NCBI GenBank assembly: GCA_964016885.1
Contig: OZ024745.1
Span: 76,694,001 to 76,758,000, forward strand
DNA from: Eledone cirrhosa
Taxonomy: Eukaryota
DNA: 64,000 nt
Direction: 5' to 3'
The notes beneath the pieces were generated by a model that saw only the letters and a list, made by a program, of their open reading frames with translations, ran no database searches and was not told the DNA's origin. A program made the translations under genes and the position numbers. Positions 11,481 through 49,343 of the stretch are shown here, piece by piece; position 1 is the stretch's first letter; each line of letters opens with the position of its first letter.

Positions 11481-12038
11481 TAAGCTGATAAATAATAAAA
11501 ACTATCACTATAGCACAAAAACCAAACCATGAATTCCTACTCGACTATTGATTCGTATAATAACTTACCTCTGAATATCCTAATCATTTATACCGCTTCG
11601 GCAAACTGATAATAGACTAATTCTTTTTATTGTTTCTTTCTTTTGTTTTGTTGTTTCAGTTAAAGAACCAGAAAAATTCTTCAACGCTCCAATACAAATT
11701 TCGACCATTGTCACGTTCTCCCGGCTATAAATGCTTTATTCGCTACCTTTGTCTCTTTATACATTGTAATTTTCTGTTATTTTGTAATGGAAATAAATGA
11801 ACTGAATTGAAATCCAGCATATTAAATCACTCACAAGCCAACATGGGATTCTTTATGTGGTCGCTCGATCAACTACAAATAGCAAATTTGCTTAAAATCT
11901 CACCGTATCATATTTTAAAAGAAAGTAAGAAGCCTCGAAATAATATTAGTTGGACTGAGGCAAACAATACCAACAACAATGTCTTGTCATGATTGGCAAG
12001 AAATAAAACGATAAAATTCGAAACTAAAATTTACTCAC

Positions 12039-12422
12039 AGTATCTTCTCTAAGCATCCAAATAGCGCGGTGGTAATTCTGCCTTTCTTCGGCAGTCAACA
12101 TTCTATATTCTTTACGAATTCTTTTTGAAGAAACATTTCGCGCCTCGGCTGTGAATCGATCAATCAACATGTTAATATATTCTCCTCTTCCCACCGTGGC
12201 CCAAAGATTAATTTTAGTTTCAGAGCTGTGAGCTTCATCAAACTTTTTCTTTAAGTAATATTTCAGACACAATGATAACCATTCTTGTTCAGTAAATTGT
12301 GCTTCGCTTATGTTTTTCTTCAAGCATGCTTCAAGTTCTTTGGAAGAACTAACAGATACCTCAGCTGAGATAATATTAAAAGTAATACCAAACAGCAGTA
12401 GGAATGCAGTATAGCATACCAT
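12039..12422 (-). CDS. tyr: Tyrosinase-like (type-3 copper) protein, coding exon 1 (signal peptide and pro-region)
   Basis: ATG at 12422 begins the hydrophobic signal MVCYTAFLLLFGITFNIISA. The tyrosinase N-terminal motif RIRKEYRMLTAEERQNYHRAI follows. The exon ends at a phase-0 donor ACT|GTGAGT (12039/12038). An upstream acceptor ttttatttttcag| at 12452 implies a 5'UTR exon further upstream. Confidence 0.88.
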
Positions 12423-13289
12423 TGTGTTGTTTATATAAATTCTGTTATCCCCTGAAAAATAAAAACAAAGTTTTATGAGTAATTTTGAGTAATTTTTTAA
12501 CATGTAGTTCGTGAGTTTGGGCACGTTTGTATGCCATTTGAGGTAGAGAAATCTGGCGTGTCAAGGCTATATTTCAGACCTGCCAATCTCGAAAAATCCA
12601 AACGAAGAGTACCATGAAATAAAGTACGCCAAAATAGGAAAAAATGGGGAGAGTTTACATAATGAAAGCTATACCGATTTTCACAAAAGAAGACATCTCG
12701 CATAGTGGGTGGGAGATCTCGTCGGACAGGGAGAGTTGACAGGTCTGATATTTTGTCTGAGAGAAAGAAATGTTTCAAACTAAGAAGGGATGCATAATAC
12801 CTGCATAGATAATCTCAGACGATCGAAGGTTTTCAATGCAGTATAATGAATATGTGAAAACCTACCGAACTTTTATTTAGTACACAGAAAGCTCTATAGA
12901 AGTATTCCCCTCAGTTGATATCACTAATCAGTCTCACAGCATTTTCTCTATTTCTATTTGTACTGATCGTTATTAATCTTGCCATACGAGTAGAATATGC
13001 TTCGCCGAGAGCGTCAAGTTAAAACAACATATGTCCTTGTTTCTATTGTATTAATAATACATAATATGCGTGCAGTACCTTATAGTACAATATTTTGTAT
13101 GCTGTATATCTTGGGGTTTGGTTGTGTATTCTGTCTGTGTGTTTTTTTATCATTTCCAGAACACCTATTATAGGTATTGTTTCCGGTTTCGTCATCAACA
13201 TTCAGGTTATTTCTATTTCCAGATCTTTATACTTGAATAATTTCTTCATTTCCTTGCTCTTTAGAGATAGATATGTCAATGATAAGACA

Positions 13290-17611: not shown

Positions 17612-18885
17612 AATAAATGAAAGAGAGCCGAGCGGACTAGTCGGGTGTATTGATAAACTGGCCATAGAAACCATACATCGTCATAGGGTGGCGTAAGAGA
17701 TGAAAGAGAGGCGAGCGAACTAGTCGGGCGGTTTGATAAACTGACGATAGAAACCATAGTCATAGGGTGGTGTAAGAGATGAAAGAGAGCCGAGCGGACT
17801 AGTCAGGCGTGTGGATAAACTGACCATAGAAACCATAGTCATAGGGTGGTGTAAGAGATGAAAGAAAGCCGAGCGGACTAGTCGGGCGGTTTGATAAACT
17901 GACCATAGAAACCATAGTCATAGGGTGGCGTAAGAGATGAAAGAGAGTCGAGCGGACTAGTCGGGCGGTTTGATAAACTGACGATAGAAACCATAGTCAT
18001 AGGGTGGTGTAAGAGATGAAAGAGAGCCGAGCGGACTAGTCGGGCGGTTTGATAAACTGACGATAGAAACCATAGTCATAGGGTGGTGTAAGAGATGAAA
18101 GAGAGCCGAGCGGACTAGTCGGGCGGTTTGATAAACTGACGATAGAAACCATAGTCATAGGGTGGTGTAAGAGATGAAAGAGAGCCGAGCGGACTAGTCG
18201 GGCGGTTTGATAAACTGACCATAGAAACCATAGTCATAGGGTGGTGTAAGAGATGAAAGAGAGGCGAGCGAACTAGACGGTCGGTTTGATAAACTGACCA
18301 TAGAAACCATAGTCATAGGGTGGCGTAAGAGATGAAAGAGAGCCGAGCCGACTAGTCGGGCGGTTTGATAAACTGACGATAGAAACCATAGTCATAGGGT
18401 GGTGTAAGAGATTAAAGAGAGCCGAGCCGACTCGTCGGGCGGTTTGATAAACTGACCATAGAAACCATAGTCATAGGGTGGTGTAAGAGATGAAAGAGAG
18501 CCGAGCGGACTAGTCGGGCGGTTTGATAAACTGACGATAGAAACCATAGTCATAGGGTGGTGTAAGAGATGAAAGAGAGCCGAGCGGACTAGTCGGGCGG
18601 TTTGATAAACTGACGATAGAAACCATAGTCATAGGGTGGCGTAAGAGATGAAAGAGAGCCGAGCGGACTAGTCGGGCGGTTTGATAAACTAACCATAGAA
18701 ACCAGACATAGGGTGGCGTAAGAGGTGAAAGAGAGCCGAGCGGACTAGTCGGGCGGTTTGATAAACTGACCATAGAAACCAGACATAGGGTGGCGTAAGA
18801 GGTGAAAGAGAGCCGAGCGGACTAGTCGGGCGGTTTGATAAACTGACCATAGAAACCAGACATAGTCATAGGGTGGCGTAAGAGT
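17612..18885. repeat. 79-bp tandem repeat array (~16 copies)
   Basis: Unit gagatgaaagagagccgagcggactagtcgggcggtttgataaactgac(g/c)atagaaaccatagtcatagggtgg(t/c)gtaa. The anchor gagatgaaag occurs at 18013 and 18171, two units of 79 bp apart. Confidence 0.95.
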
Positions 18886-19734: not shown

Positions 19735-19925
19735 ATTGTTTCTACTTTTGGCACAAGGCCAGCAATTACCCAGTGTATTACTGGTACTTTATTTTATCGA
19801 CCCCATAAAGATGAAAGGCAAAGTTAACCTCGGCGGGATTTGAACTCAGAATGGCAAGGGCCGTAACTCTATGCGTCAAAGCATGGCGTCCGACCCTCTA
19901 CCGATACTGCCAATCCACCATCAGA
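19735..19925 (-). mobile_element. SINE family 1 copy
   Basis: Near-identical to the copies at 34000-34185, 41130-41320 and 46685-46860. Confidence 0.85.
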
Positions 19926-22156: not shown

Positions 22157-22200
<44 letters not shown>

Positions 22201-22414
22201 TTCTTTATTTACCATAAAGGCATAAAAAGAAGGGACAAATACAAAGGGGGAGTTTACATATAATCGAGTAAAAAGGGTGTAACATGAAAATAATCGAAAA
22301 TAACCTCAAAAGGGAGGGGACGTGATGGGGGTTGCACACACCCCCGAAAAAGTGTGCAATCCTTTGCCCGGGGAGCACATGGAGAAGGTGCTCCCCTCTC
22401 CTTTACTTCTTTAC

Positions 22415-25400
22415 CTACAGGATGGTATACAGAGAAGGCCCATTTACACGAGCCATTCTCGCCACTATCACCCACCTTTCATAAAACTGCCTGTGGCCAA
22501 GCACCTCTCTCTCCATTCTTATCCTTCTTCCGAAGTGATATCGGAAGAAGTAGACCAGACTATGGCTAGAGAGGAAGTTGCCTGACCTCAGACCTTTCAA
22601 TCGTGTCCACCAAACAACCTCTTTCAACATGGCTATTACGCACAGAAAAACCGCCTTTGCTTCCTTTGTGAAGAGGGGAGGCGGTTTGATTGTCATCACG
22701 GACTCGGCGGTCAATTTAATCGGCGCCACCCGCGACAGCAGTTGTTCGGCGTAGCCCCACAGATCAGCCACGCCCGGACATTGCACCAATGCGTGCGCCA
22801 CGGTTTCTTCGTGACGCACGCATCTAGGGCAAATCTTTTTTGAGGGATCCCTGCCCGGGCGCCCGTGTCTGTAGAGCCTCTCTCGAACGGGTAGAGCCCC
22901 TCGGTAGCACTGCCAGGCCAGTGACTTCTGGAAGTTGTCCATTGGTCCTGGGCCGAAAGTCCTACCGAACAGGCTGGCCAGTTCGTCTTCTTCCATGTCC
23001 AGCGACTCTCCAAGGGTGTCATCGCCCCTGCTAGCCACCAGCCCTCTATAGAATGATGAGGTGGATTCTCCACCGATGGCCCGGCCCGCTTGCCAGAGAG
23101 CCCTGAGCGCCTGAGCACACTCAGTGTGCCAGTCTCCCAGTTTTCCGGATCTTTGTTTGACCCAGGACTGTAGCTCGGTGAGTGAGACGAGTCTCGGAAA
23201 GGCTCGTTTCACGAACGGGGCCCACACCGGTTGACCAGTGAGGAATACCTGTAGGTGCCGTAGCCTTAATGCGTGCCTACGCATCATCAACCACGGCATC
23301 CCCAGCCCTCCTTTCGAAGGTTGTTGGCAGCAGATGGATCTTCTCACCATAGGAGGACGCTTCTTCCAAAGAAATTGGAAGAGCATGCGTTCCATGGTGG
23401 TGAGTGTTTCCTTAGGGCAAGGCACGACAGTCAGGCGGTAGTAAGTGACGGACGCTATGTAAATGTTCGCCACCTCCGCCCGGCCTTTTAGGGACAGCTT
23501 ACACTTGGCCCATTTCTGGGTTAGTGCAAACACCTTGTTCGTAACCTCGTTCCAGTTCTTTTCCACCTGGAGGTCCGGTCCAAACCAGACCCCAAGCAAC
23601 TTTACCGGGCCCTCCGTCCAGTGTCCGACGACACCGTCAGGAGGCATCGGTTTGCCTCTCCACGTTCCGAGTTGCAGCCCGATGGATTTTTCCCGGTTCA
23701 GTTTCGCTCCTGACAACCTTTCGTACTCCTCCAGTAAGGTACCGATCGCCTCGATCTCCGAGTCGGTTGATACCATTACTGTTACGTCATCGGCGTAGGC
23801 CGACACCGCTTTGCTCAATCCTGGTTCCAGGGGGATACCCTGCAACAACTCCAACTTCCTCAGTAAAGGCTCGAGAGTCAATACGTACAGAAGGGAGGAG
23901 AGAGGGCACCCCTGTCGAATGGATCGTGTGATTTCGAACGGCTTCGAAAGGTAGCCGTTCACCTTGATCCTAGAACAGATGTGGTTGCTATGTAGGGCAG
24001 TGATCCAGCCTCTGAAAACAGGACCGAACCCAGCCGCCGCTAGCACCGCATCCAGGTAACCATGGTCGACCCTATCGAAGGCCTTAGACTGATCCAAGTT
24101 GATCAGGGCCCCACCGAAGCCGGGTTTGTTGCCAACCCTCTCTATGATGTATCGCATGAGGTGGAGGTTATCGTGAATGGACCTGGATGGGATAGCACAT
24201 GTCTGCGCATCTCCCACCAGGCCACCCACGACAAGCGCCAACCTCTTTGCTAACACCTTGGCCAAAATCTTTAACTCTGTGTTTAGCAGGGTTATGGGCC
24301 GAAAATTATTTATACTATCCCCCTTTTTCTCGTCCTTCCTCACCAGCGTGACTACGCCCTTGGCTACAGAACAAGGAATTCTCCCGTTCTGCTGCCAATT
24401 GCAGTAGACCGCTTCGAGGAGTTCGGAGAAGAAGACCGGCATTGCTAAATAAAGTTCGTAAGGTATACCATCGAGACCTGGAGATTTGTGTCTGCTGCAT
24501 TGGCTCAGCGCATCTCCGATCTCATCAGCCGAGATTGGTCCCTCGCAGGACTCTGCCTCTTTGTTCGAGAGACGCGGCAGGCCGTCGAGGTATGGACCGA
24601 AATCCACGCCCCGGCCCGGACCCTCGCCTCCCCCGAACAATCGGGCAAAGTGCTTTTGAAAGGCCTCGCACATCTGCTTAGGCTCCCGGATCACTCGTCC
24701 ATCTTCGTCTTGCAACGACCGGATGGTGGATCGATTTCCACTTTTAGCTTCTGTCACGCGGGCCCATCCAACGGCTTTGGCCCCCTCATTACCTAGAGCA
24801 CGTATTTTACTTCGAATGACGCAGCCTTCATGCTTTGCATCGAAAAACTGGTTCAAGGCCGTCCTCGATGCCAGCACTCTGGCCACATCTTCGCTCTTGA
24901 TTGCCTCTTCTAATTTACCTGTTAATTCTTTCTCGTTTCTATTCCTATTGGCAGCTAACATCTTGCTATAACTTATTGATTCTGTTCTAATCTCTCTTTT
25001 GAGAGATGCCCACCATCGGTTGTTGACGATTGCACCCGTCAACCTCTCCTTAACTAATCTGCTAATCCGGTTTCTGTAAGCCTCTTTTGCCGGTAAAGAC
25101 AAATTAAGTTTCCAGTAACCGGGACCCTGTCTATGTGTTTTCTCGAGATTGACCACGCAGGTCACTAATTTGTGATCCGTGTAGCCAACCGTGCGCATTT
25201 CTGGACAGCTTAATATGTCCCTATCCTTACTTCTAACTAAGAATCTATCTAAGTACGATCTAGATTGACCACTGTGGTTTCTCCAAGTCCAGGTAGGCAC
25301 AGTTGGAAAATCTAGTCGATATCTATCGACCAAGTTAAAACGGTCGAGTAACCCCTTGAGGCTGTTACACCCCCCTCTATTAGGACATGCTCCTGCATAG

Positions 25401-25852
25401 TCCCAACGTGCATCTAGGATGTCATTCCAATCCCCCGCTAGAAGCAGGGAACGCGACGTTCCCAGAAAAGTCTCCAAACGCTGGAAGAAGTCGGGCCGTT
25501 CAGCTCCGAAAGGGGAGTAGACGGCGACCAGTCTCAAGGCCGCACTTTCACTACTGCCAACGTCTAGCACCAACAAACGACCCTCCGGGTCCGAGTGCAC
25601 AACCTGTACGGCAAGACCCAGGTGTTTTTGCAGCAGCACGACAACCCCACCCCCACCTCCAGGTTGACAGAGAGATGCATGCACCTCAAAGTCATCGAAG
25701 GTGGGGGCCAGCTGCCGCATGACGCTGATTCGAGTCTCACAGATAACCATTACATTTATACTACATGACCTGAGGTCATTTAGAAGCTTTGCTTGCTTCC
25801 AAGTTGAGCCCAGGCCACGTGCATTCAAACATCCTACTCTTAACACATCCAT
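22415..25852 (-). CDS. Tx1-like ORF2: APE endonuclease + reverse transcriptase + C-terminal zinc finger
   Basis: APE motifs LNARGL, ICET, GDWN, YLDRFL, TDHK. Linker GPGYWKLN. RT motifs SPGLDG, FRPITLLN, LDQSKAFDRV, RQGCPLS, YADD. C-terminal CPRC..EETVAHALVQC. Confidence 0.95.
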   Translation of the reverse strand: MDVLRVGCLNARGLGSTWKQAKLLNDLRSCSINVMVICETRISVMRQLAPTFDDFEVHASLCQPGGGGGVVVLLQKHLGLAVQVVHSDPEGRLLVLDVGSSESAALRLVAVYSPFGAERPDFFQRLETFLGTSRSLLLAGDWNDILDARWDYAGACPNRGGCNSLKGLLDRFNLVDRYRLDFPTVPTWTWRNHSGQSRSYLDRFLVRSKDRDILSCPEMRTVGYTDHKLVTCVVNLEKTHRQGPGYWKLNLSLPAKEAYRNRISRLVKERLTGAIVNNRWWASLKREIRTESISYSKMLAANRNRNEKELTGKLEEAIKSEDVARVLASRTALNQFFDAKHEGCVIRSKIRALGNEGAKAVGWARVTEAKSGNRSTIRSLQDEDGRVIREPKQMCEAFQKHFARLFGGGEGPGRGVDFGPYLDGLPRLSNKEAESCEGPISADEIGDALSQCSRHKSPGLDGIPYELYLAMPVFFSELLEAVYCNWQQNGRIPCSVAKGVVTLVRKDEKKGDSINNFRPITLLNTELKILAKVLAKRLALVVGGLVGDAQTCAIPSRSIHDNLHLMRYIIERVGNKPGFGGALINLDQSKAFDRVDHGYLDAVLAAAGFGPVFRGWITALHSNHICSRIKVNGYLSKPFEITRSIRQGCPLSSLLYVLTLEPLLRKLELLQGIPLEPGLSKAVSAYADDVTVMVSTDSEIEAIGTLLEEYERLSGAKLNREKSIGLQLGTWRGKPMPPDGVVGHWTEGPVKLLGVWFGPDLQVEKNWNEVTNKVFALTQKWAKCKLSLKGRAEVANIYIASVTYYRLTVVPCPKETLTTMERMLFQFLWKKRPPMVRRSICCQQPSKGGLGMPWLMMRRHALRLRHLQVFLTGQPVWAPFVKRAFPRLVSLTELQSWVKQRSGKLGDWHTECAQALRALWQAGRAIGGESTSSFYRGLVASRGDDTLGESLDMEEDELASLFGRTFGPGPMDNFQKSLAWQCYRGALPVRERLYRHGRPGRDPSKKICPRCVRHEETVAHALVQCPGVADLWGYAEQLLSRVAPIKLTAESVMTIKPPPLFTKEAKAVFLCVIAMLKEVVWWTRLKGLRSGNFLSSHSLVYFFRYHFGRRIRMEREVLGHRQFYERWVIVARMARVNGPSLYTIL

Positions 25853-25885
25853 GTGGGCGGCAGAGCCAAAGGAGAGTGTAAAGAC

Positions 25886-27763
25886 CTACCTTTCCGCTTC
25901 CCGGGGTTCGGGTTGCACGACTTCCATGGGGTCGGGGTTGTTGGGTGAAGGGGTGTCTTGTGGTGGTGTGGGGTCGTCGGTGTGTGGTGGGGTTGGGGTG
26001 TTTGGAGTTGTGTTGGGGAGGGGAAGGGGAGGGGGAAAGCTTTTTAGTAGGACGCGGTTTATGGGTTTGACAGAGGGTGGTCCTACGTCCTCCTTAAAAT
26101 CCTTTTTTAGTTTTTGGTAGAGGTTCATTGGGATTTTTATTAGTTTTAAATGTGGGTGGTTTTCTGATGAAACAAAGTTTACACCTTCGGTTTGTACCGA
26201 AGGATTATTGTATATGAGTTCATTTAATTTATTATTGTTTCTGTTGATGTAAGTATAGTGTAATGTCTTTTTTTCCGATGGTGTGAGTGTTTCGAAGAGG
26301 GGAGGGGCAGGTTTGGTTTTGTTTGTTGCTGGAGGGGTGTTTTCTGTTTTGTTAGATTGTGTTGCGATTTGGGTGGGGGTTGTTTGTCCTTGTGTGTTTT
26401 GCACATGTTTTCTTTTTTTCCTTTTAATCTGTCTGAAGGACTCCGTTTCTTCCTCCGAATTCGTTGGGTTATCTTCAGTGTTGGAGGGAAGAGGTATGTT
26501 TGCTGGTAATGTTTCCGTGTTGGTTTTCTTTGTGGGGGAGATGGATGTCACTATGTTAGACTGTGTTGTGTGTTGTGTCTGCGGTGGTTGTGTTGTTTTA
26601 TTGAGTGAGAGGTTGGGTGGGCCTGTATTTTGTTTTGGGGTAATGTGTTGTGACTGTTTGTGTTGTGGTGGTGTTGTGGTGTTACTGAGGGACGGGTTGG
26701 GTGGGACTGAGTTTTGTTGTTTGTTTATCTGTTGTGGTGGTGGTGGTGGAGCTGGTGTTGGTAGCAGGGTTTTCTTTTTGTTGAGTTGGGGACAAGCGGC
26801 CTTCAGGTGCCCTCTGCCTGCACAGATATGGCAGGACGGCCTTCTCCCCTCCACGCTAATGTTTATATACCCGTGGTCCTCTAATAGGATTCTGTCGGGT
26901 ATTTGGGCGATGCGTTCAGGCTTCATTTGTACTACCAGCTCTATACCTGTTCCACTGAACGCATTGCCTGTGGTTTTCCCAATGGAAATCACGTTGTCAT
27001 TCACTGGATCGATGAAGCCAGCTATGAGCCAGCAGTAGTCCACATCTGGCATCATTGCATCCAGCCATATGCGTTGAGTTTTTTTTCCCATATAAGATGG
27101 ATAAAAGGTGAAATTTTTCGAACGAATCGGTGACAAAGCACATTTTTTTGCCGCCGATTCGTTCTTCATGATGATTGCTAGGCTTCCATACAGTCTGTCT
27201 TTTCTTATGAAAGTTGTTTCATTCAGTACTTCTGCGAGTACTGTTTTGATATCTGCTTGAGAAGGCTGTTCAGGTTTTTTTGTACTGTTGTTGATGGTCC
27301 GAAACTTGACCGTTCGGCTTTCAATGTCTTTCGTGAATTCTTGAGGCATTTTTACCAATAAAATACCATTCTCACCTTCACTTATGTATTGTTTTGCGTC
27401 CGTGATCCTTCGTACCACATCTGAAATGTTTTCCGCTATATAAGTCAAAGATTTCTTTGTTTTCTGTGCAAATGAAATCTTGTCGTCTGCTTTGTTTTCT
27501 GATATGATGTTATTTTCAACTGTTATTTTTTTGTTTGTTGTGTCTTTGTTTGTGTTATTAGTATTGTCATGCAATTTTTCAAATTTTTTTTTCCCGTTGT
27601 TTTCGTCATTTAATTTTTCCTCCGCAGATTCGTCCGTTTTTATTTTCATTTTTCCTTCCTTCTCTATGACGTTAGTTGGGAAGGAAGGGAGGACTAAAGC
27701 GTGCGAGCTTACAACTCTTACCGCTGTCCCCCCACCACTATTTTCGTTCGCTGCGTTTAACAT
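25886..27763 (-). CDS. Tx1-like ORF1 (gag-like RNA-binding protein with one CCHC zinc knuckle and a Pro/Thr-rich region)
   Basis: VEGRRPSCHICAGRGHLKAAC fits C-x2-C-x4-H-x4-C. It lies directly upstream of ORF2. Confidence 0.88.
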   Translation of the reverse strand: MLNAANENSGGGTAVRVVSSHALVLPSFPTNVIEKEGKMKIKTDESAEEKLNDENNGKKKFEKLHDNTNNTNKDTTNKKITVENNIISENKADDKISFAQKTKKSLTYIAENISDVVRRITDAKQYISEGENGILLVKMPQEFTKDIESRTVKFRTINNSTKKPEQPSQADIKTVLAEVLNETTFIRKDRLYGSLAIIMKNESAAKKCALSPIRSKNFTFYPSYMGKKTQRIWLDAMMPDVDYCWLIAGFIDPVNDNVISIGKTTGNAFSGTGIELVVQMKPERIAQIPDRILLEDHGYINISVEGRRPSCHICAGRGHLKAACPQLNKKKTLLPTPAPPPPPQQINKQQNSVPPNPSLSNTTTPPQHKQSQHITPKQNTGPPNLSLNKTTQPPQTQHTTQSNIVTSISPTKKTNTETLPANIPLPSNTEDNPTNSEEETESFRQIKRKKRKHVQNTQGQTTPTQIATQSNKTENTPPATNKTKPAPPLFETLTPSEKKTLHYTYINRNNNKLNELIYNNPSVQTEGVNFVSSENHPHLKLIKIPMNLYQKLKKDFKEDVGPPSVKPINRVLLKSFPPPLPLPNTTPNTPTPPHTDDPTPPQDTPSPNNPDPMEVVQPEPREAER

Positions 27764-27995
27764 TTCTGTTAGACGATTGAAATTTTTTACACAAAATTTT
27801 TTTTAAAACAGGTTATTTCACCTCTAGGAGGGGTAAAGATGAGCTGACCCACCGCCTGACAGTTCAGACGGAGGGTCAAGCTACACAATTGTATCAAAAT
27901 TAAGTTTGAACTCACAAAATTTCCTCAATAAATTTGAACAAAACTTCTGTGCGAAGTGAATGACATCCACACTGTAGAACAGACGACAGCTAGAT

Positions 27996-28037
<42 letters not shown>

Positions 28038-28080
28038 GAGCGAGAGAGAGAGAGGTGGGTAGATAGATAGATAGATAGAT

Positions 28081-31000
28081 TGATTTATTATTAGCCACAA
28101 GGGCGCACAAGAAAGGGAGACAAAACAAAGACATGCCGGGGATTTTACATACAATCGTGTAAAAAAAAAATAAAACAAACAATTATAACAATCGAAATCC
28201 CCAATAGGGGGGAGGCACCACAAATGGGTTGTTTAATACCCCGTCGATAGAACAACCCTCAACTTCAGGAGCGTGTTGTACAAGTGATCCTTTCTTCCTT
28301 TTGCTCTCTTCTTTAACCTACAGGCTATAAACAGAGAAGGCCCAATCACTCGGCCATTTTCGCTTCATTCACCCACCTTTCAGTAAATTTACTGGAGTGC
28401 AGTGCCTCTCTCTCCACTCTGATTCTCCTTCTAAAGTGATACTTAAAGAAGAGAATCAATTGTTGTCCGGAGAGAAAGGCATCTGTCCTCAGTCCTCTCA
28501 ATCTCGTCCACCATATAACCTCTTTCACCATAGCCACTGTACAGAGGAAAACCGCCTCTCTTTCATTTTTGAAAGAGGCTGGCGGTTTGATCCTTACTAT
28601 GGACTAGGCAGTCAACTGGATTTGTCCCATACGCGACAGCAGTTGTTCTGCATAGTTCCACAGCTCGGTTACGCCCGGGCAGTGTACAATTGCGTGCAAG
28701 ACGGTTTTAATGTCCTGCTCGCATCTTGGACACGTCCTCTTGGAAAGATCCCTGCCGGGGCGTCCGTGCCTGCAGATCTTGTCTCGAACGGGCAGAGTTC
28801 CTCGGTAGCACTGCCAGGCCAGAGACCTCTGGAAGTTGTCCATAGGTCCCGGGCGGAAAGTCCTACAGAACAGACTGGTGAGCTCATCGTCTTCGACGCC
28901 CAGAGTCTCTCCGAGCACGTCGTCGCTCTTGTAACGTACAATCCCTCTATAGAATGCTGAAGTGGAGTCTCCACTGATTGCTGTGCCCGCTTGACAGAGG
29001 ACAGTGAACGCCTGGGCGCATTCAATGTGCCAGGCGCCCATCTTCTTCGTTCTTCGCTTGACAGAGGACAGTGAACGCCTGGGCGCATTCAATGTGCCAG
29101 GCGCCCATCTTCTTCGTTCTTCGCTTGACCCAGGACTGCAGCTCCGTCAGCGAGACAAGTTGTGGGAAGGCCTGTCTCACAAATGGTGCCCACACCGGTT
29201 GGTCGGTGAGGAATACCTGGAGATGCTGTAGCTTCAGCGCATGTTTGCGCATCATTAGCCAGGGCATGCCCAGCCCTCCGTTGGAAGGGTGTTGACAGCA
29301 GAGGCATCTCCTCACCAGTGGAGCCTGCTTCTTCCACAGGAACTGGAAAAGCATTCGTTCCATCTTGGTGAGGTATTCACGGGGACAAGGCACGACAGTC
29401 AAGCGGTAGTAGATGACGGACGCTATGAAAGTGTTCACCACCTCCGCTCGACCTTTCAAAGACAGTTTGCACTCTGCCCACTCTGGGTGAGCACAAATAC
29501 CTTGGCCATGACCTCGTTCCAGTTTTTCTCCACCTGGAGGTCTGGACCGAACCAGACCCCGAGCAATTTCACCGGTCCTTCCGTCCAGCGTCCAACGACG
29601 CTGTCGGAGGGCATCGGTTTGCCTCTCCACGTTCCGAGTTGCAAACCGACAGACTTGTCCGGGTTCAGTTTTGCTCCTGTGAACCTTTCGTATTCCTGTA
29701 GTAGGTTGCCAATTACCTCGATTTCCGAGGTTTTCGACACCATTACTGTCACGTCATCGGCATAAACCGACGCCGCTTTTCGCAGTCCCTAAAGGGATGC
29801 CCTGCAAAAGCTCCAACTTCCTCAGTAGTGGCTCTAGGGTCAATACGTACAGAATGGAGGAGAGAGGGCATCCCTGTCGAATGGAACGCATTATTGCGAA
29901 CGGCTCTGATAGGTAGCCGTTCACCTTGACCTTCGAGCAGAAGCTGGTGAACATCGCCTTGATCCAGCCTCTGAAAACGGGACCGAAACCGGCCGCCTTG
30001 AGAACCGCTTCCAAATATCAATGGTCGACCCTATCGAATGCCTTAGACTGATCTAAATTGATCAGAGCCCCACCGAAGCCGGGTTTACACCCCATCCGCT
30101 CTATAATGTATCGCACGAGGTGGAGGTTGTCGTGTATGGACCTGGTCGGGATTGCACACGTTTGCGCTTTCCCTACCAGGTTTTCGACGACAAGCGCCAG
30201 CCTCGTTACTGGCACCTTGGCCAAAACTTTTAACTCTGTGTTGAGCAGAGTTATGGGCCTGAAATTGTTTATTTCGTCCCCTTGTTCTCGTCTTTCCTGA
30301 TCAGCGTTACTACGCCCTTGCCTGCAGAACTGGGAATTGTCCCGTATCTCAGTGGCTGTGATCGGTCTTTCGCAGAACTCGGCGTCCATGCTCGGGAGAC
30401 GCGGCAGGGCGTCGAGATATGAACCAAAGTCCATTTCCCCGTTCGGTGCACCGTCGTTCTGCTCAAACAGTTGCGCAAAGTGCCACTGAAAGGCCGCGCA
30501 CATCTGCCTGGGGTCAAGTAGCACGCGTCCGTTTTGGTCTTTCAAAGACCGAATCGTGGACTTGTTGCCACTTTTCGCTTCCGCCACTCGGGCCTAGCTA
30601 ACAGCTTTTGCTCCATCGTTTCCTAGAGCACGTGATTTACATCTGACCACGCAGCCTTCGTGTTTCGCGTCCAAGAACTGGTCCAGTGCCGTTCTCGATG
30701 CTAACACTCTAGCTGCGTTGCCACTCCTAAGCGCCTCTTCTACCTTGGCTACTAGTTCTGTTTCTGATTTGTTTTTCTCTAAAGCTAATTCTCTGCTAAA
30801 CCCTATCGATTCTACTCTAAATGCTCTCTTGAGAGAGTACCACCATCTATTGTTGACGATGGCTCCCGTCAACTCTTGCTTAACTAATCTACTTATCCGT
30901 TCACTATAGGCTTTTCGTGCCGGCAACGACACGTTCAGCTTCCAGTATCCGGGTCCTTGTTTATGTATTCTATCACGGCTGACTATGCAGACGACTAGTT

Positions 31001-32849
31001 TGTGATCTGAATAGGCAACCATGTGCATTTGTGGACAGCTTAACATCTTGTCCTTCTCTCTAATGGAAACCCTATCTAGATACGATCTAGATGTCCCGCT
31101 GCGGTTTGCCCACGTCCACTGTGGTGCAGTCGGGAAATCTAGTCGATATCTATCGGCCAGTTGGAATTGGCCATTTAGATTTTTGAGGCTGTTGCACCCC
31201 GCTCTACTGGGACATGCTCCCACATAGTCCCATCTTGCATATAGGATAACATTCGGGTCCCCCACTAAAAGCAAGGAGTGAGACCTTCCCAGAAAAGACT
31301 CTAGCCGCTTAAAGAAATCTGGCCGCGATTGTGATTGCCCGGTCGGGGCATAAACGGCCACCAGTCTGAAGGCTCCACCTCCGATACTGTTCACGTCTAG
31401 GACTACCAGTCTACCCTCCGGGTCCAAGTGTACTTGCTGTACTCCGACGTTCAGGTTCTTCCGAAACATAACAGCCACTCCACCTTCACCTCCCGGCTGA
31501 CAGAGAGATGCGTAGTCATTGAAGATGGGGGTTAGTTACTGCCTGTTGTGGATCGTGGACTCGGTGATGGCTATTACATCTATACCGTGTGACCTAAGGT
31601 CGTTTAAAAGTTGGCCCTGTTTCCAGGGCATCCCTACGCACGCACATTCACGCTTCCAACTCGTAAGTCAGCCATGTTGGTGGAGAAGAGTTGGCGAAAA
31701 GGACGAAAGGTGCTCTTACCTTTTCGTTTCCTGGAGATCGGGTTGTTTAATCTCTATTTCAGTTCTTGTGGGGTGGGGAAACATTTCAACAGGACATGGT
31801 TTATTGGTTTTTGGCAGGGGTTGCCAACGTCCTGTGAAAACTGTTCTTTCAATTTCTGATAGGTTTCTATCGAAACCCTTATTAGTTTTAGGTGTGGTTG
31901 AGAGTCTGCTTTGACAAAAAATTCCCCCTCAGTTTCCACTTTGGGGTCCTGTGAGATGACCTCAATCAAATTTTTGTTGTTGGTGTTGATGTATGTATAT
32001 TGTTGTTTTTGTTTTGGTTGTGTTGTTTTAGTTTGTTGTTCGTCTGCGAGTTTTCATTTTTGTGTTTGGGGTGGTGTTGGTGTTTGTTTTGTTGGTAGGG
32101 AGGTTTGGTTGTGGTGTTGTTTGTGTTGTTGTTTGTGTCTGTGGTTGTGTGTTGGTGTTGGTGATTGGAGTTTTGTGGTGTCTCTTTTTTTGTTTTGGGG
32201 ATTTCCGAGGCTCTTCTTCTTCTTCACTTAAAGAAGGAGGAGCAGCCTCATCTGTTGAATAATCATCATCAGGAGTGTCGGGTAGGGGTATGTTGTGTGG
32301 TGATGGTGTTTCGGTGTGTATGTTTGTGGTAGTGTTGGATTGAGTGGGGTGGGGTGGGGTGGGGCTGTGTTCTTCAGGGTTGCTGTCTGTGTTTTTACTG
32401 TAGTTTGTGGTTGAGTGGTTGTTTGTTTGGGTGTGTTTGCTTGTTTTGTGTGTTGTTGTTGTTGTGGTGGTGGTGGTGATTGTTTTGGTGTTGGTGTTGG
32501 TAAAAGTACTTTTCAAAAAAATTTGTTTGTAAAGGGCAGGAGGCTTTTAGGTGTGATGTGCCTTGCACATCAAAAACAGTGTGGCTTTCTAGTTTCAGTT
32601 ACAATGTTAATGTAGTATTGGTTGTTGACCAACACTCTTTCGGGGATTTTGGAAATTCTTTCTGGTTTCATTTGTATCAGAATTTCCAAATTTGTCCCTG
32701 CCCACCCTTGTCTGGTCGATTTCCTGACCGAAAGATTTGTGTCACTTTCTGGCTCTATGAACCCTGCTAAGATCCACCAAATGTTGATGTTTGGTGGTAT
32801 GTTATTTATTTAATTTTTGTGTTCTTTTTCCCATGTAAGTAGGGAAAAG
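28081..32849 (-). mobile_element. Tx1-like copy B, 5'-truncated in ORF1, with frameshifts, deletions and a 67-bp internal duplication
   Basis: Fragmented ORFs 28346-31478 align by eye with copy A ORF2. ORF1 remnants lie at 31716-32849. gatagatagatag marks the truncation junction (32850-32862). Confidence 0.9.
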
Positions 32850-33680
32850 GATAGATAGATAGTATTCAATGTAGCTATATTTTTTATGATTTAGTTTGAA
32901 TGTGTCCATTGCTCATGCAGTGCTGTGACAGTGGTTAGATTGATGCGGCTGAGGTTCCGATTCAAAATTTATCTTTATGTCTACTAATAAAAAATATGAA
33001 TAGCATGGGATTTCCAAGCTGTTACTCAAACTGGAGGATAAGTAATTGTTTCTACTTTTGGCACAAGGCCAGCAATTACCCAGTGCATTACTGGTAAGGA
33101 TAAGTAATGAGCACTGGGGTTAGTCTGGTGCCTGTAGAGAGAAATATGGTATGAATTACAACAGGAGAGAATGAAAATACGCCATGCTGGCTTGACTAAC
33201 GTTATGACAACGATAGAAAGAGAATACTGAGAGGATGTCGTATCTGTGAGCCAGGGGTTGAACTGCGAGAGAGTTTATAATTATCTGGGTGAGTTGCTTT
33301 TAGAAGGACTCATAAATAAATGTATGTGTAACAGCAACATTGTCCTAAATCTAGGTGTTATCTGGTCTCGACGGGGAAAGATAATCATTAACATGAAGTT
33401 TTTGTTATGTTATGATGTTATGAATGCGAGAGTGGCAGGTTAGATTCTCAGAGATGCTAATACTTTATATATATATATATAAAAAGCAAAAGGGATATTT
33501 AATTTGTTGGTAATTCAACAAATATATATGTTTATAACTGATTCGAAGCACTCAACGGATTTTCTGGAGTATAATATTCAATGATATTAAATAAATGGAA
33601 ATTATATTTCCTATCCAGGAAAAACTTGAACTGTTAAGATTTTCTTCCTGGATATGTCAATATTTATAAAACAAACTTTG

Positions 33681-34288: not shown

Positions 34289-35020
<732 letters not shown>

Positions 35021-35237: not shown

Positions 35238-35384
35238 AAAAAGAGATTGATTTTTTTTTTTCGTTTCAGAAGACACCGTTTTGGGTGAACTTTGCTTAGG
35301 GGGAGTTTGGTGGTAATTGATATAGAGAGGAAGGTTGGCAGAGTGTGTTGTATATTAGATATAAATTTCTATTTATTTGCCACC

Positions 35385-37532
35385 AGGGCATCAAAGATTG
35401 GGACAAATACAAAAGGGGGAGTTTACATACATTTAAAAAGACGTGTAAAAAACATATAACAAATTAAATTTAACAATCGATGTCCTTAATAGGGAGGGGC
35501 GTTGACATGGGTCGCCCCCTCCCCCCGAAAAAATGTGCAACCCTCCTCACAAAGAGCGGGTGCTTCCTTCCTCTTCTCATTCTTCTCCTCTCTCACCTAC
35601 AGGCTGATATAGAGAGAGGGCCCATTCACTCGGGCCATTCTCGTTACTTTCAACCACCTTTCATAAAACTTGCTGGGGTAGAGCACCTCTCTCTCCATTC
35701 TAATCCTTCTTCTAAAGTGGTACTTGAAAAAAAGGACCAGTTGTTGGCCGGAGAGAAAGGTGTCTGACCTCAGCCCTTTCAACCTTGTCCACCATACAAC
35801 TTCTTTCGCCATGGCTATCACACAGAGGAAAACCGCCTCTCCTTCGTTTTTGAAAGGGGGAGGCGGTTTGATCGTGACAATGTTCTCGGTGGTCAACCGG
35901 ATTGGTCCCACCCGCGACAGTAGTCGTTCCACATAGCCCCACAGGTCAGCAACGCCCGGGCAGTGTACGAATGCGTGTGCGACGGTTTCTTCGTCACGTA
36001 CGCATCTCGGACAGATCTTCTTCGAGGGGTCCCTACCCGGGCGCCCGTGTCTGTAGAGCTTGTCCCGAACGGGTAGAGCTCCTCAGTAACATTGCCAAGC
36101 TAGGGACTTTTGGAAGTTGTCCATCGGTCCTGGGCCAAACGTCCTACCGAACAGACTGGCCAGCTCATCTTCCTCCATGCCCAGAGCCTCTCCGAGAGCG
36201 TCGTCGCACTTACTGCGCACCAACCCTCTATAGAATGTTGAGGTTGAGTCTCCACTGATTGCCGGATCCGCTTGCCAGAGGGCCGTGAGCGCCTGGGCAC
36301 ATTCAATGTGCCAGACGCCCACTTTTCTCGGTCTTTGCTTGACCCAGGATTGCAGCTCGGTGAGTGAGCCGAGTCTCGGAAAGGCTCGCCTCACAAACAG
36401 GGCCCACACCGGCTGACCGGTGAGGAATACCTGGAGGTGCCGTAGCCTTAATGCGTGTCTACGCATCTTCAGCCACGGCACCACCAGCCCTCCGTTCGAA
36501 GGGTGTTGACAGCAGATGGATCTTCTCACCAAAGGAGCCCGCTTCTTCCAAAGAAATCGGAAGAGCGCGCGCTCCATTTTGGCGAGTGTTTTCTCTGGGC
36601 AAGGCACGACGGTCAAGCGGTAGTAGATGACGGACGCTATATAAGCGTTCGCCACCTCCGCTCGACCTTTCAGGAATAGTTTGCAATCGGCCCACTTCTG
36701 TGCGAGTGCAAACACCTTGCCCGTTACCTCGTCCCAGTTTTTCTCCACCTGGAGGTCCGGTCCGAACCAGACCCCGAGCAGCTTCACCGGTCCTTCCGTC
36801 CAGCGTCCGACGATGCCGTCGGAGGGCATCGTTTTGCCCCTCCACGTCCCGAGTTGCAAACTGACGGACTTGTCCCGGTTCAGCTTGGCTCCTATGAACC
36901 TTTCATATTCCTCCAGTAAGGTGCCGATCTGCCCGATTTCCGAGGCGCACGACACCATTACTGTCACGTCATCGGCGTAGACCGACACCGCTTCCGTAGT
37001 AGTGGCTCGAGAGCCAGCACATACAGGAGGGAGGAGAGAGGGCATCCCTGTCGGATGGATCGCGTGATTTGGAACGGCTCCGAGAAGTAGCCGTTCACCT
37101 TGACCCTCGAGCAGGTGTTGCACCTGTGCATTGCAGCAATCCAGCCTCTGAAAACGGGTCCGAAGCCTGCCGCCGCGAGCACCGCATCCAGGTACCGATG
37201 GTCAACTCTATTGAACGTCTTAGATTGATCCAATGTGATCAGGGCCCCACCAAAGCCGAGTTCGTTCCCTACCCTCTCTACGATATATCGCATGAGGTGG
37301 AGGTTGTCGTGTATGGACCTGGACGGGATTGCGCATGTCTGCGCTTCTCCCACCAGGTTCCCGACGACAAGCGCCAACCTCTTCGCTAACACCTTGGCCA
37401 AAATCTTTAACTCTGTGTTTAGCAGAATTATGGGCCTGAAGTTATCTATGTCATCCCCCTTGTTCTCGTCCTTCCTCACCAGCGTGACTACGCCCTTGAT
37501 CACAGAACTGGGAATTCTCCCGTTCTGTTGCT
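35385..37532 (-). mobile_element. Tx1-like copy C, 5'-truncated within RT
   Basis: ORFs 36964-37503, 36083-37123 and 35597-35932 are homologous to the C-terminal half of copy A ORF2. The 3'UTR resembles that of copy A. Confidence 0.92.
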
Positions 37533-37890
37533 GGTGTTATTGATATAGAAAGGGGTATTGAAAGAGAGTTCCGTGTATTAGATATAGAGATGGGGAGAAT
37601 TTGGTGTTAATTGATATAGAGAGGGGGATTGGAAGAGAGTACGGTGTAGTAGATATAGAGAGTGTGAGAGTTTAGCGGTGAGTGATATACAGAGAGGGAT
37701 TGGGAGAGGTAAGTATAGATATTTATAGGGAGTGAGAGAGTGTATTAGTCTTAGATATAGAGAGTGGAATAAGAGAGGCGGTGTCGTGGTAGATTTAGAG
37801 AGGGGTAGAGTTTGGTTTTAGTAGATACAGAGAAGGGGATTAAAAGAGAGTTTTGTGTGGTAGACATAGAGAGGAAGAGAGTTTGATGGC
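37533..37890. repeat. Degenerate ~30-bp minisatellite with GATATAGAGAG core, continuing at 35300-35384 on the other side of copy C
   Basis: Repeated (t/a)gatatagag(a/g)gggg motifs on both sides of copy C. Confidence 0.65.
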
Positions 37891-39813: not shown

Positions 39814-40814
39814 GGAATAGAATGAAACGAAATTTCATTTCTCACTCTTAGTACGGCACTTACTTAAATGTAAGTATGTATGTATGTATACGTACATACA
39901 CATATGTATACAGACGTACAATAGTATGTATATATATATACATACATGCACACATATATATATGCACGTATCGGTTTATCGAACATTTATTATAATGCTC
40001 GGTTTGTTTGTTTGTAAACAAACAAACAGCCCGAATTACGCCGTACAGTGTTTAGGCAACCACTGACACAGGAACGATGTACTAGTTTGAAGCTTATTAG
40101 CTATCGTCAGCATCGTATACCTTCCTGCCAGATGGTTGAAGGTCTGAAAGTATATACTGTGCTTAAGTAAACCTAAGTACAATGGTAAATCCGGCACTGT
40201 TTACACTCACCACCTGATTTTGTTTCCTAGCTATCTTAATAATGTATAGTTGACAGAGAAACATTTTTGAAGCCTAAGATTAGGATTATCTCAATGAAAA
40301 TATCATTTTAGATTATACAAAATCCTATGTTGCTATAGACAATCGATGTCATTATCCTGACTGATATTTTTCATTACAAACATGAAATTGGAGAGCAACC
40401 TTTTAAGATTTTCGAGTTTACATTTACCTTGATTACAGATAATGAACGAAAACATACAATAATGAAAACATTAATGAATAGAAATATGCAATAATAAAAC
40501 TCCTTAAAATATTTGTTTATATTTTTCATCTGTAAAATCGTTATCTACATTTTTAAAAATGTATTTCTGCAATATTTCATTTTAAAATATGCATTATTAA
40601 GAAAGCTATGAAAAAAACAAATATTGGTGGAAGTTGGAGGCACTAAACAGCCCTATGGTAATGTAAAAAAACATATTCAAAATAACTGAACAAATCATTG
40701 AGAATCATTTGCGGAGATTGTCTTCTGCTTCAGTTAAATACAAGACAGAGTGTTAAAAAATAGTTTGGATGAATTGTCAAATCCCAAAGCCCTGGCCAAG
40801 AAGCATTATTTCTC

Positions 40815-41320
40815 GGTGGATTGGCAGTATCGGTAGAGGGTCGGACGCCATGCTTTCCAGCAGAGTTACGTCCCTTTACGATCTGAGTTCAAATCCTGCC
40901 GAGGTTGACTTTGCCTTTCATCCTTACGGGGTCGATAAAATAAAGTACCAGTGATGCACTGGGTAATTGCTGGCCTTGTGCCTAAAGTAGAAACAATTTT
41001 TTCTCCTGCCGAGGTTAACTTTACCTTTCATCCTTACGGGGTCGATAAAATAAAGTACCAGTAATGCACTGGGTAATTGCTGGCCTTGTGCCAAAAGTAG
41101 AAACAATTATTTCTTTTAATTCTTTTAAAAGTCGGTGGATTGGCAGTATCGGTAGAGGGTCGGACGCCATGCTTTGACGCATAGAGTTACGGCCCTTGCC
41201 ATTCTGAGTTCAAATCCCGTCGAGGTTAACTTTGCCTTTCATCCTTACGGGGTCGATAAAATAAAGTACCAGTAATGAACTGGGTAATTGCTGGCCTTGT
41301 GCAAAAAGTAGAAACAATTA
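40815..41320 (+). mobile_element. Three tandem SINE family 1 copies (middle copy 5'-truncated)
   Basis: Repeated ggtggattggcagtatcggtagagggtcggacgcc...gagttcaaatcc...ggccttgtgc. Confidence 0.88.
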
Positions 41321-41719
41321 TTTCTTTTAATTCTTCTGATAAAAACGATGGTCTTCGTACAATGATCAGATATTGAGTAAGCACAATACATGAACACAAT
41401 TTTTTCTTCAATTATAATCAAATTAGGTTATAATTAGATGCTTAAATGCTCCTATGGTATATGATACTGTAAATTGTATGTTTACTAAATTTTGCAAAAG
41501 ATTACACAAAAAAAACCCCCAAAAAACAAAAATTTTATTTCTATCGTAATCAAGTGTGCTAAACCTATATTGTTTACATTCTGTGTTTTTCTACGGATGG
41601 TCAGAAATAACAAAATTGCCATGGTGATATCCATGGATGAAGTATGCGACAAAACTGGTCGATGTTCCAAAATAGAACATTGCCCAGAAAATCACACCTG
41701 CCATATTTGTACGGAACCC

Positions 41720-42976
41720 GAAAACTCGTTGTTTACCTTGACTTTGCTAAGGCTTTTAATTCTGTGCCACACAAAAGACTTATGGTGAAACTCTCTACAA
41801 TGGGTGTGAAGGATGGTCTTTTTAACTGGTTGAAATCCTTCATTCTCAGCCGAAAAGAGGTAGTCACAGTTCTAGGACAGCATTCTTCACCATATGAGAT
41901 GTCATCTGGTGTGCCACAGGGGTCTGTTCTTGGTCCCCTTTTGTTTGTTGCATACATTAATGACATAGATGCCAACTTAAAGAATGCCACAGTACTTAAA
42001 TATGCAGATGACATCAAGCTGTACCTTGAAATCAAAAGGACAGATCCTGAAATCTATAACTCTTTCCTACAATCAGACCTGGACACAATGCAGCAATGGA
42101 TCACAGACTGGCAACTGAAGCTGGCTGTGGACAAGTGTACCACCATGCATTTTGGGAGGAAAAATCCAGCGTCCACATACTCCCTCCACAATACTGATAT
42201 CAAGAAGTCCTCTTGTGAACGTGACCTGAGCATTACTGTCAGCAGCGATTTGCGTTGGACAAAGCACATCTCTAAAATTGTCAAGAAGACCGAGGGTGTC
42301 TTGGCATCACTCAGAAAGACCTTTGTTAGCCGCTCTCCAGCCATCTATTTAAAGCTGTATACAGCTATGGTACGACCACACTTGGAATTCGCATCATCAG
42401 TCTGGAACCTCTATTTTGCTCAGAACATTGACCTCCTGGAAACTGTTCAGAGACGTGCAACCAAGCGCATACCCTCCATCAGACACCTACCATACTTTGA
42501 GCGCCTTGCTTCCCTGGGCATGGATTCATTGAAGCTCCGACGTCTGGCAATGGACTTGGTAAACACCCACAAAGTTATTAACCATTTCGCCAACAACCCT
42601 GAGCACTTTTTGATCTCCATGTGTCTAACACACGTGGACATGCCTACAAAGTCAGAAAACAGCACAGCTCCCATGACTTTCGGAAACATTTTTTCACACT
42701 TAAAGTTGCTGAAGCATGGAACAAACTGCCTGCGTCAGTTGTTAGCTGCCGAGACACTGCATCCTTTAAAACTCTCATGCTTCCCGAAATTTGCCAAAAC
42801 TACACCTGACGTTCCCCTTCCATACACATGCACACATGTGTATATCATGACTCATGCTCTGTTCATTTTCCTGACGTTTGTACATTACCCTATGTACTAT
42901 ACATACACTTTTGATGAGTTGTAGTGCACCTGAGCACTGTACACAATATTTTCATTATTATCATTATTATTATTAT
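41720..42976 (+). mobile_element. 5'-truncated CR1-like LINE (RT C-terminal half)
   Basis: VYLDFAKAFNSVPH, SGVPQGSVLGPLLF, YADD, VRPHLEFA, VQRRATK, and TRGHAYK after a frameshift. Ends in a (TTA)n tail at about 42955-42976. Confidence 0.9.
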
Positions 42977-43459: not shown

Positions 43460-45205
43460 ATCATCATCATCGTCATTTTACGTCCGCTTTTCCCTGCTTG
43501 CAAGGGTTGTACGGATCCTATTCAGCACAGCATCTCTCCACTTGTCACGGTCCTTCGTCATCTCCTCGGTGAGTTTCAGCAATCTGAGGTCTGCTCTCAC
43601 CACCTCCGCCCATGTTTTTCGTGGTCTACCTCTACTGTGTCTTCCTTCTACTGGGATTTCTTGGCACTTCTTTACCCAGCGGTCATCCTCCATCCTCCAT
43701 GTCCATACCATCTCAGCCTTCTCTCCTGCACACCACAACTTATCCCTCTTATACACAGTTTCTTTCTCAACTCGTCTATGCTTGGTCGTTCACGCACATT
43801 GGCATTACACATCCAACGGAGCATACTTGCTTCATTTCTCTCCAGCCGTCTCATATCTTCTGCAGTTGCTGCCCATGTCTCACTACCATGCAGCATCGCG
43901 CATCTCACGCAGGCATCATATAACCTTCCTTTTGTACGCAAGGAGAAACCCTTCTTAGTCAACAGAGGAAGCAGCTCCCTAAACTTCTTCCAACCCGTCC
44001 TTATTCTAGATACTATGACCTAGGTACCGGAAGCTATCAACCACTTCTATAGAACTCACCTGCATTGGAAAAATGTGTCTATCACTGCGATTACTACTGC
44101 CAAATTTCCCTGTACATCTACTGCATACGTAGTTTTCCCTACCTGTTAGTTTGCCTGCTATTCCACTACATCTCTTGTGTACCCAAGATCTGCATTGTGT
44201 AAATTTTATGGAATTTATGCCAGTTCCTTTCCTACTTATCGAACATGGCCATTTCCCTGATGGAATCAGAGTATTGTCCTCTCTTCTACTTATCAACACT
44301 TTTGTTTTAGCTATGTTCACTCTCAGGCCTCTTGATTCCAACTGCTGTTTCCATAGCCAGAATTTATTCTCTAGCTCCTTTACTGATTCTGCTATAAGAA
44401 CCAGATCATCAGCATAGAGAAGTTCCCATGGGCAGCCAGTCTTAAACTCCTCTTGAAGGACTATAATGAACAAGAGCGGGCTGAGGACCGAACCCTGATG
44501 TATTCCTACTTGTATCTGGAATTCCTCACGAAACTCCATTCCTATTCTCACTTTACTGACAGCACCCCTGTACATAGCTTGCACTGTCCTCACAAGCCAT
44601 TCCTTTACACCTAGTTTCCTTAGGGACCACCAGATGATAGATCGGGGTACCCTATCAAAGGCCTTCTCTAGGTCAACAAAAGCTAAGTATAGTGGCTTAT
44701 TCTTCTCTAAGAACCTCTCTTGTAGTTACCTCACTAAGAAGAGGGCATCTGTTGTACTTTTCGAGGCACAAAACCAAACTGCATCTCATCTAATTTGAGC
44801 CTTTCTCTAATCAGTTGCGCTAATATTCTCTCTGCCACTTTCATAACCTGATCCATCAGCTTTATGCCCATATAATTGCTCCTCTCTAGAGCATCCCCTT
44901 TACCTTTGTAGCAATTTATGAGAATACTGCTGCACCAGTCTTTGGGTATGACACCACCATATATACCTTGATTAATGATGCGTGCAACCAGTTTAGTTCC
45001 TACTTCTCCTGATGCCTTCAGCATCTCAGCAACTATCCCAGACGGTCCAGCAGCCTTACCATTTTTCATTTCCTTAATTGCTTCTTTGACCCTATATTTG
45101 TCAATCTCAATAGCTGGTCCCTCTGTCGGGTCTACTGGGGGTAATTCCTCTCTGTCCCATTCGTTCTCCACATCATTCATCAGTCTCTCATAATGACATT
45201 TCCAA
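43460..45205 (-). mobile_element. 5'-truncated, frameshifted RTE-clade LINE
   Basis: GKAAGPSG, QFGFVP, GIHQGSVLSPLLF, ELLYADD, MLHGSETW, RRLRWYGH and RGRPRKTW motifs; (GAT)n tail. Confidence 0.92.
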
Positions 45206-45230
45206 TATATATATAATTGTGTGTATATAT

Positions 45231-45330
<100 letters not shown>

Positions 45331-48217: not shown

Positions 48218-48537
48218 GAAACACACAGATACATATGTGTGTGTCCGCATGTATCTGTGTGTTTCTAAATATATTAATAACTCCCTCTGGTCGAGCAATC
48301 TTTGAAGTGTGGGGACAACTGGAAAGCTTCCATTACTCATACTTCTCGCCTTCTTCACTACCTCTTCTGCGGCCTCGATATGAATGCCCCCTCCGCCTCC
48401 GTGGTATTTTCTTCGTGGTTATAGGAGGCTTAGCTCTGTTTCTCGACCGTTATATCGCGTGACTATCTCCCCCTCCGCCTTTTGGGATTCTTTCTCACGT
48501 CGTGTAGACGCGTTCTTGAGACTAGTAAAATGAGGTA

Positions 48538-49285: not shown

Positions 49286-49343
<58 letters not shown>

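Follow-up and report, generated by a model that had tools for sequence, protein, structure and literature searches.

Long interspersed elements (LINEs) of the Tx1 type are known to occupy microsatellites, with Kibi in (TC)n and Koshi in (TTC)n of teleosts and crocodilian families in (TTCC)n and (TTTC)n (PMC4494074, PMC3812793; citations throughout refer to the portions of those papers available to us). We analyzed a window of 64,000 nucleotides from Eledone cirrhosa (contig OZ024745.1), from which alone the five element copies A to E are taken. A, B and C probably belong to a single branch, within an octopod clade of L1/Tx1-group LINEs, that inserts at TATC-like sites by target-primed reverse transcription (TPRT), in the steps proposed below, with a sense-strand target TAT(C/A)T for which (TATC)n microsatellites would be the preferred but not the sole sites. 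Like Kibi, Koshi and the crocodilian Tx1 elements, those in the window are LINEs with two open reading frames (ORFs) and an apurinic/apyrimidinic endonuclease (APE) that lie in microsatellites, related families using different units. Unlike Kibi and Koshi, they have a cephalopod host, their TATC-like and ATT targets are not pure-pyrimidine, and insertions are found outside arrays too. None of A to E sits in a repeat of the Kibi/Koshi type, that is (TC)n, (TTC)n, (TTCC)n or (TTTC)n.

Dong, Waldo and Mino belong to the R4 (restriction-like endonuclease) and R1 clades, so their likeness to the present elements is convergent. These LINEs target (TAA)n, (ACAY)n and (AC)n, respectively, Dong being found in a snail, and the TAA unit of Dong is of the same repeat class as the ATT array at D (PMC3812793). 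In Octopus vulgaris 80 L1-Tx1 families are annotated, 13 of them recently active, and the available parts of the text and supplement hold no analysis of their targets (PMC13282606). A to E are probably among the annotated octopus L1-Tx1 families, if the host is an octopus. A literature search, with Repbase and subscription journals outside its scope, found no TATC- or ATT-targeting Tx1 element and no cephalopod pair of a Tx1 element and a short interspersed element (SINE). Within the finding, the switch of target from one close relative to another and the probable partnership with a SINE are the more valuable parts.

Elements A and B in a compound microsatellite

Element A (5,798 bp; 22198-27995, minus strand), delimited by its ORFs and the junction register, is apparently full length and intact. 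A 232-bp 5′ untranslated region (UTR) is followed by ORF1, a 33-bp spacer, ORF2 and a 217-bp 3′ UTR without poly(A); we place the 5′ end from the edge of the flanking repeat only. ORF1 (25886-27763, minus strand) is an uninterrupted frame of 625 residues with a long C-terminus rich in T, P and N and a single CCHC knuckle at residue 311, a feature of the Tx1 clade. Its Pfam match to zf-CCHC is weak (E 0.089), and its look-alikes in the Atlas are CCHC and ZCCHC3-RBD clusters (0.90-0.92), which we take as a lead only. ORF2 (22415-25852, minus strand; 1,145 residues) encodes an APE, a reverse transcriptase (RT) with the YADD motif and a C-terminal zinc motif, matched in Pfam by Exo_endo_phos, RVT_1 and zf-RVT. 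The catalytic motifs of the endonuclease are unbroken, and its predicted structure (pLDDT 94.8) has LINE-1 endonuclease as best fold match, with a TM score of about 0.8. Given the N-terminal APE and the RT in ORF2, with ORF1 ahead of it, the elements are APE-type non-LTR retrotransposons of the L1 group. Comparison of ends delimits a conserved 3′ terminus at 22198-22224 (minus strand), comprising a hairpin with a 5-nt loop, AATAAA and GAAATC.

Element B (4,768 bp; 28082-32849, minus strand), recognized by homology to A, starts inside ORF1 and is decayed by frameshifts, stop codons, a 131-bp deletion and a 67-bp duplication. A first-pass annotation of this DNA took A and B for copies of one family. 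They are 75.2% identical in ORF2 at the nucleotide level and 70.5% at the protein level, and because ORF2 DNA is only 75% identical we treat them as separate families.

The window holds four runs of (GATA)n of at least 12 nt, at 22157-22200, 27996-28037, 28060-28080 and 32850-32862, and no others; each is on the plus strand, and dinucleotide shuffles of the window gave no matches to such runs. As A and B both lie on the minus strand, their sense strand shows the repeat as (TATC)n, in one orientation at all four of their junctions. The 3′ flank of A is a (TATC)n block at 22157-22197 (minus strand; repeat scan and junction register). Its 5′ flank is a compound microsatellite at 27996-28081 (minus strand, read from the sequence), which is also the 3′ flank of B; this 86-bp gap consists of (GATA)10, a GA-rich segment with GGTGGG, and (TAGA)5. 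A and B are two insertions in two blocks of this one compound microsatellite. The first-pass annotation had reported GATA repeats at both ends of A, at the 3′ end of B and at its 5′ truncation point inside ORF1, with both elements in the same orientation to the repeat, and all of this is confirmed. The head-to-tail stack that it described holds as to order, but the elements do not abut.

Homology of B to ORF1 of A starts exactly at 32849, where a 13-bp TATC run (32850-32862, minus strand) stops. Among 88,834 background positions (44,417 bases on both strands, with the elements and their arrays masked), none carries a TATC run of 13 nt, and no run of at least 12 nt is present in the window outside the A/B arrays. 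From the junction and this count we read the run as a target site duplication (TSD). An assembly artefact or a local duplication has next to no probability as the source of this arrangement: the region is repeat-rich and holds other near-identical duplicates, but A and B, 75% identical and unequally decayed, are not one segment that was collapsed or duplicated.

Elements C, D and E and the choice of target

Three further members, C, D and E, were overlooked in the first-pass annotation; C and D were found by self-comparison of the window and E by a profile scan. Element C (35364-37531, minus strand), delimited by homology and trees, is 5′-truncated in the RT and groups with A and B. It has no TATC tail, and its 3′ junction lies at a TATATC core of a minisatellite. 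This repeat, of about 35/71 bp with CTATATC cores, lies at 37532-37885 (minus strand) and continues past C at about 35280-35363. C cuts into this minisatellite, which has a period of 32-39 bp, with a flank-to-flank score of 76 compared to a maximum of 32 among 1,889 random windows. Element D (57387-63404, plus strand), delimited by self-comparison and ORFs, is near full length and about 70% identical to A in nucleotides; ORF1 is split and ORF2 has a single frameshift. Its ORF2 protein is 66% identical to that of A. D is flanked by (ATT)n on both sides (57354-57386 and 63405-63422). Element E (6536-6562, plus strand) is a 27-bp 3′-terminal stub that matches the end of D at 22 of 27 nt. It lies between 15-bp direct repeats, identical at 14 of 15 positions and opening ATTATT and ATCATT; a comparable repeat is found at 0.9% of random positions.

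E sets the end of the elements at GAAAT(C/A), without poly(A), so that the bases beyond it are target. On this register the first target bases are TATC for A, AATCTATC for B, TATATC for C, ATTATT for D and ATCATT for E. The 5′-truncated members are B, C and E, and repeats of TSD size are seen at E (15 bp) and B (13 bp), both as in APE-type LINEs of the L1 group, whose TSDs measure about 10-20 bp. The B run falls inside the 10-21 bp range of the TSDs at E and at 8 of the 15 3′ ends of a SINE-like repeat treated below, and with the register set by E its length is that expected of a TSD. A nick before "TC" was considered and dropped, since the TSDs of E and the SINE-like repeat put those two bases inside the element.

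These ends bear on whether A and B could instead carry a (TATC)n tail encoded by the element, in a family without target specificity; the repeats on the 5′ side would then stem from insertion or survival in a microsatellite-rich region. Microsatellite tails at the 3′ end are common in other LINE clades, and pure 2-4-nt microsatellite makes up about 4% of the background. We nevertheless judge this very unlikely: the 5′ run of B cannot be a tail, as no family-type 3′ end lies ahead of it among the best 30 profile matches, the run is without a counterpart elsewhere in the window, C has no tail, and E and the SINE-like repeats show that the first bases past the end are duplicated target. The first-pass argument that a tail does not explain the 5′ repeat of B is thereby supported, and we read the TATC repeat at A and B as target, not element tail.

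All four trees (three of protein, one of DNA rooted on D) set A+B+C apart from D as a clade. An exclusive A+B group is never recovered, and the approximately unbiased (AU) test on DNA rejects it (p 0.013). The closest named match to ORF2 comes from Argonauta, with 67% identity. An RT tree built without a named Tx1 or animal L1 reference gives a polytomy with turtle and fish proteins (38-41% identity), outside plant L1s; human L1 ORF2p scores lower, with 174 bits over 848 aa, whereas the turtle and fish matches reach 280-381 bits over no more than 461 aa. Compared among sequences that include no named Tx1L, Keno, Kibi or Koshi, the A-E lineage appears Tx1-like, in support of the first-pass report of a Tx1-like APE-type LINE in a mollusc.

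The idea of a TATC-specific lineage stands only in part: A and B sit in (TATC)n, but C sits at the TATATC core of a non-GATA minisatellite and D and E at ATT. Two of the three A/B/C sites are pure (TATC)n, which would agree with A and B being strictly (TATC)n-specific in the manner of Kibi and Koshi and with C being a rare off-target insertion. Kojima's working threshold for a Tx1 target asks only that more than 20% of flanks be of one type (PMC4494074). D has (ATT)n and E an ATT site. We hold strict specificity to be most improbable, since the third site is not a microsatellite and C falls inside the A/B branch, while the relatives use short motifs (E and the SINE-like repeats) as well as arrays (D). 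Strict specificity and a preference for TATC-like sites differ as a matter of degree.

From anatomy, junctions, TSD-sized repeats, relationships and hairpin covariation we infer the following steps for TPRT at TATC-like sites. The ORF2 protein would bind the conserved 3′ hairpin of its own RNA (stringent recognition), nick the GATA strand (in the case of D, the AAT strand) and prime there, duplicating some 10-20 bp of target. The duplication would restore the site, allowing later elements to stack the same way round, so that B, now decayed, would have inserted first and the intact A later. The sister branch of D and E would act likewise at ATTATT. Site choice is most likely a joint product of endonuclease preference and pairing of the RNA end. 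In A, D and E the AATAAA lies 6 nt from the element end. Normal 3′ cleavage falls 10-30 nt downstream of AATAAA, which would place it in the flanking repeat. The RNA would then probably carry a few target units able to pair with the nicked strand, and the lack of poly(A) would be accounted for as well.

The endonuclease is taken as the main determinant of Tx1 targets (PMC4494074), and the endonuclease hairpin loop has been argued not to be a modular determinant (PMC1950540). In the present elements the loops are of equal length (NHSGQS in A, NRSGTS in B and NRIGSS in D). Between A/B and D they are nearly alike, so that no determinant of the target switch was found in the protein.

The shared 3′ hairpin and the SINE-like repeat

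The SINE-like repeat is abundant, about 190-230 bp long and dispersed, with 15 3′ ends in the window. An example with the LINE-type 3′ hairpin end and a TSD opening ATT lies at 19737-19920 (minus strand; comparison of ends). ARAGORN and Rfam searches of the window found nothing, and we apply the label SINE by inference. ATT directly follows all 15 ends, and a TSD of 10-21 nt opening at ATT accompanies the 8 mentioned above, compared to 4.8% of 600 random ATT sites. Copies are stacked head-to-tail at 11059-11470 and 40813-41325, with common TSDs opening ATT.

A profile of the last 22 nt of the SINE-like ends ranks the D end 17th of 127,956 positions, behind the 15 training ends and one further SINE-like end; B follows at 30th, A at 32nd and C at 66th. 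Three other LINE ends in the window rank below 3,300, and on this rank the other window LINEs (CR1-like, RTE-like and R4-like) were rejected as SINE partners. In the reciprocal direction, the best non-training match to a LINE-end profile is a SINE end. The common end is a 4-bp hairpin with a 5-nt loop in which three of four pairs change on both sides among 14 rows (the ends of 5 LINEs and of 9 SINE-like copies out of 15), a score that none of 500 shuffles reaches. A broader claim about folding of the whole end was dropped: energies are unremarkable for most ends (z 0.03 to -2.85), so the claim is limited to the inner hairpin. The feature that marks stringent SINE/LINE pairs, a shared 3′ terminus with a conserved stem-loop, is thus present, on a short match, and the D/E branch probably mobilises the SINE-like repeat.

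This pairing resembles two described systems. As with crocodilian Tx1-Mar and SINEU, a LINE and a SINE use one target and tandem insertions sandwich a TSD; there, unlike here, the link runs via the target, no common 3′ terminus having been found for SINEU-1, whereas here the hairpin terminus is shared too (PMC4494074). As with LINE1-1_ZM and ZmSINE2, an L1-group LINE and a SINE have a common 3′ stem-loop with compensatory changes, but the pairs of that kind are from plants and algae and no microsatellite targeting is described for them in the text available (PMC3472496, PMC3747384). The SINE/LINE pairs in Table 1 of PMC3747384 include no mollusc and no partner named Tx1, as far as that source was available.

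A more far-reaching version, which we put forward tentatively, is that the TATC and ATT branches, both hairpin-stringent, split at about 30% divergence, that the ATT branch drives the dominant octopus SINE, and that targets may be partly inherited from the donor site via read-through RNA. If so, targets could switch with little change in the endonuclease.

A sister lineage, stacking and wider significance

A scan of a prokaryotic genome collection gave 43 loci, of which 37 belong to a single record set whose title names a bacterial metagenome-assembled genome (MAG; L002-L036 and L043 among them). These contigs are evidently mis-binned eukaryotic retrotransposon DNA. The sister lineage that they carry has the same two-ORF layout at 42-44% identity, and its ORF1 is homologous to that of A (E 2e-11). 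The same hairpin occurs in 37 of 37 loci, in the stem variant of the SINE, followed by AATAAA; the SINE gives a longer gapped match to this lineage than to D, one that only 1 of 300 shuffles equals. Intact LINEs stand in head-to-tail arrays with a period of about 6.4-6.8 kb at 36 of the 37 loci. Separately, a 35%-identical relative lies in a U1 small nuclear RNA gene (L038, 2757-2920 and 9682-9858; a single locus) with a complete U1 copy 5′ of it. The sister arrays and L038 make site-selective stacking, with changing targets, look like a trait of the wider clade.

Such arrays also suggest that elements might simply insert beside a 3′ end of their own kind, TATC being merely where the founder B landed. 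The sister lineage stands in long arrays with non-microsatellite spacers, also ahead of 5′-truncated copies (3 of 47 junctions), and SINE ends in the window stack too. We consider self-stacking unlikely for the window elements: A lies 86 bp from the end of B, past a GA-rich spacer, and is only 75% identical to it, the solitary C is still on a TATATC core, and D and E each stand alone at an ATT site.

Several observations weigh against TPRT at TATC-like sites, or against the SINE link. TATC-type sites number only three, two of them in one array, and the 3′ junction of B opens AATC instead of TATC. The C site is not a microsatellite and has no clean TSD; its register fits a target deletion of about 15 bp or a scrambled duplication. 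The AU test on protein, unlike that on DNA, leaves an exclusive A+B group unrejected (p 0.12), and the endonuclease loop, tried as a specificity determinant, is uninformative, as A/B and D barely differ. The LINE-SINE match, with D, spans only about 22 nt. Among the 15 SINE ends, 7 have no TSD of at least 10 nt, and the two tandem stacks supply four of the eight that do. The SINE rows in the covariation analysis are related and the outermost pair is open in 8 of 14 rows, so that covariation is support, not proof. At 47 distinct 3′ ends of the sister lineage the next 16 nt or so are subfamily-specific and not microsatellite; these junctions were read with one reference unit, the next copy being unmatched for several subfamilies.

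Other features of the window include a tyrosinase exon at 4827-6203 (minus strand), 73% identical to a protein of Argonauta hians and 61% to one of Illex; with the Argonauta match of ORF2, this points to a coleoid and probably octopod source. The segment at 12024-12560 (minus strand) may be a further exon of this gene, lying upstream, and E and several repeats are found between the two. An RT fragment at 6868-8028 (minus strand) has a weak RVT_1 match and is presumably Penelope-like by its motifs. A LINE fragment at 9935-10800 (minus strand) combines a restriction-like nuclease motif with a C-terminal zinc motif, and we take it to be R4/Dong-like. It is bordered by (ACAT)n at the 3′ end and by (CA)n where it breaks off on the 5′ side, and is possibly another microsatellite-associated family. 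LINE remnants at 41641-42924, 44006-45357 and 52958-54115, ending in ATT-type or TGA repeats, are presumably CR1-like or RTE-like by their motifs. Pfam finds only RT or zinc domains in these other LINEs labelled CR1-, RTE- or R4-like. A 79-bp satellite of 16 copies, 94% identical, occupies 17617-18884. Two direct duplications are bounded by (TA)n, one of 471 bp at 99.8% identity (48230-48700 and 48821-49291) and a near-identical one with a 264-bp period (34489-35020).

How site-specific LINEs change target is poorly understood. The intact A and the near-intact ORF2 of D, at 66% protein identity, form a natural pair with which to separate endonuclease preference from RNA-target pairing. SINEs, all together, make up about 12% of the Octopus vulgaris genome (PMC13282606). 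If the SINE link is true, it would name a LINE partner for a repeat class of that size and add an animal to the L1-group cases of stringent 3′ recognition. In octopods, microsatellite markers of the GATA and ATT types may often adjoin these elements.

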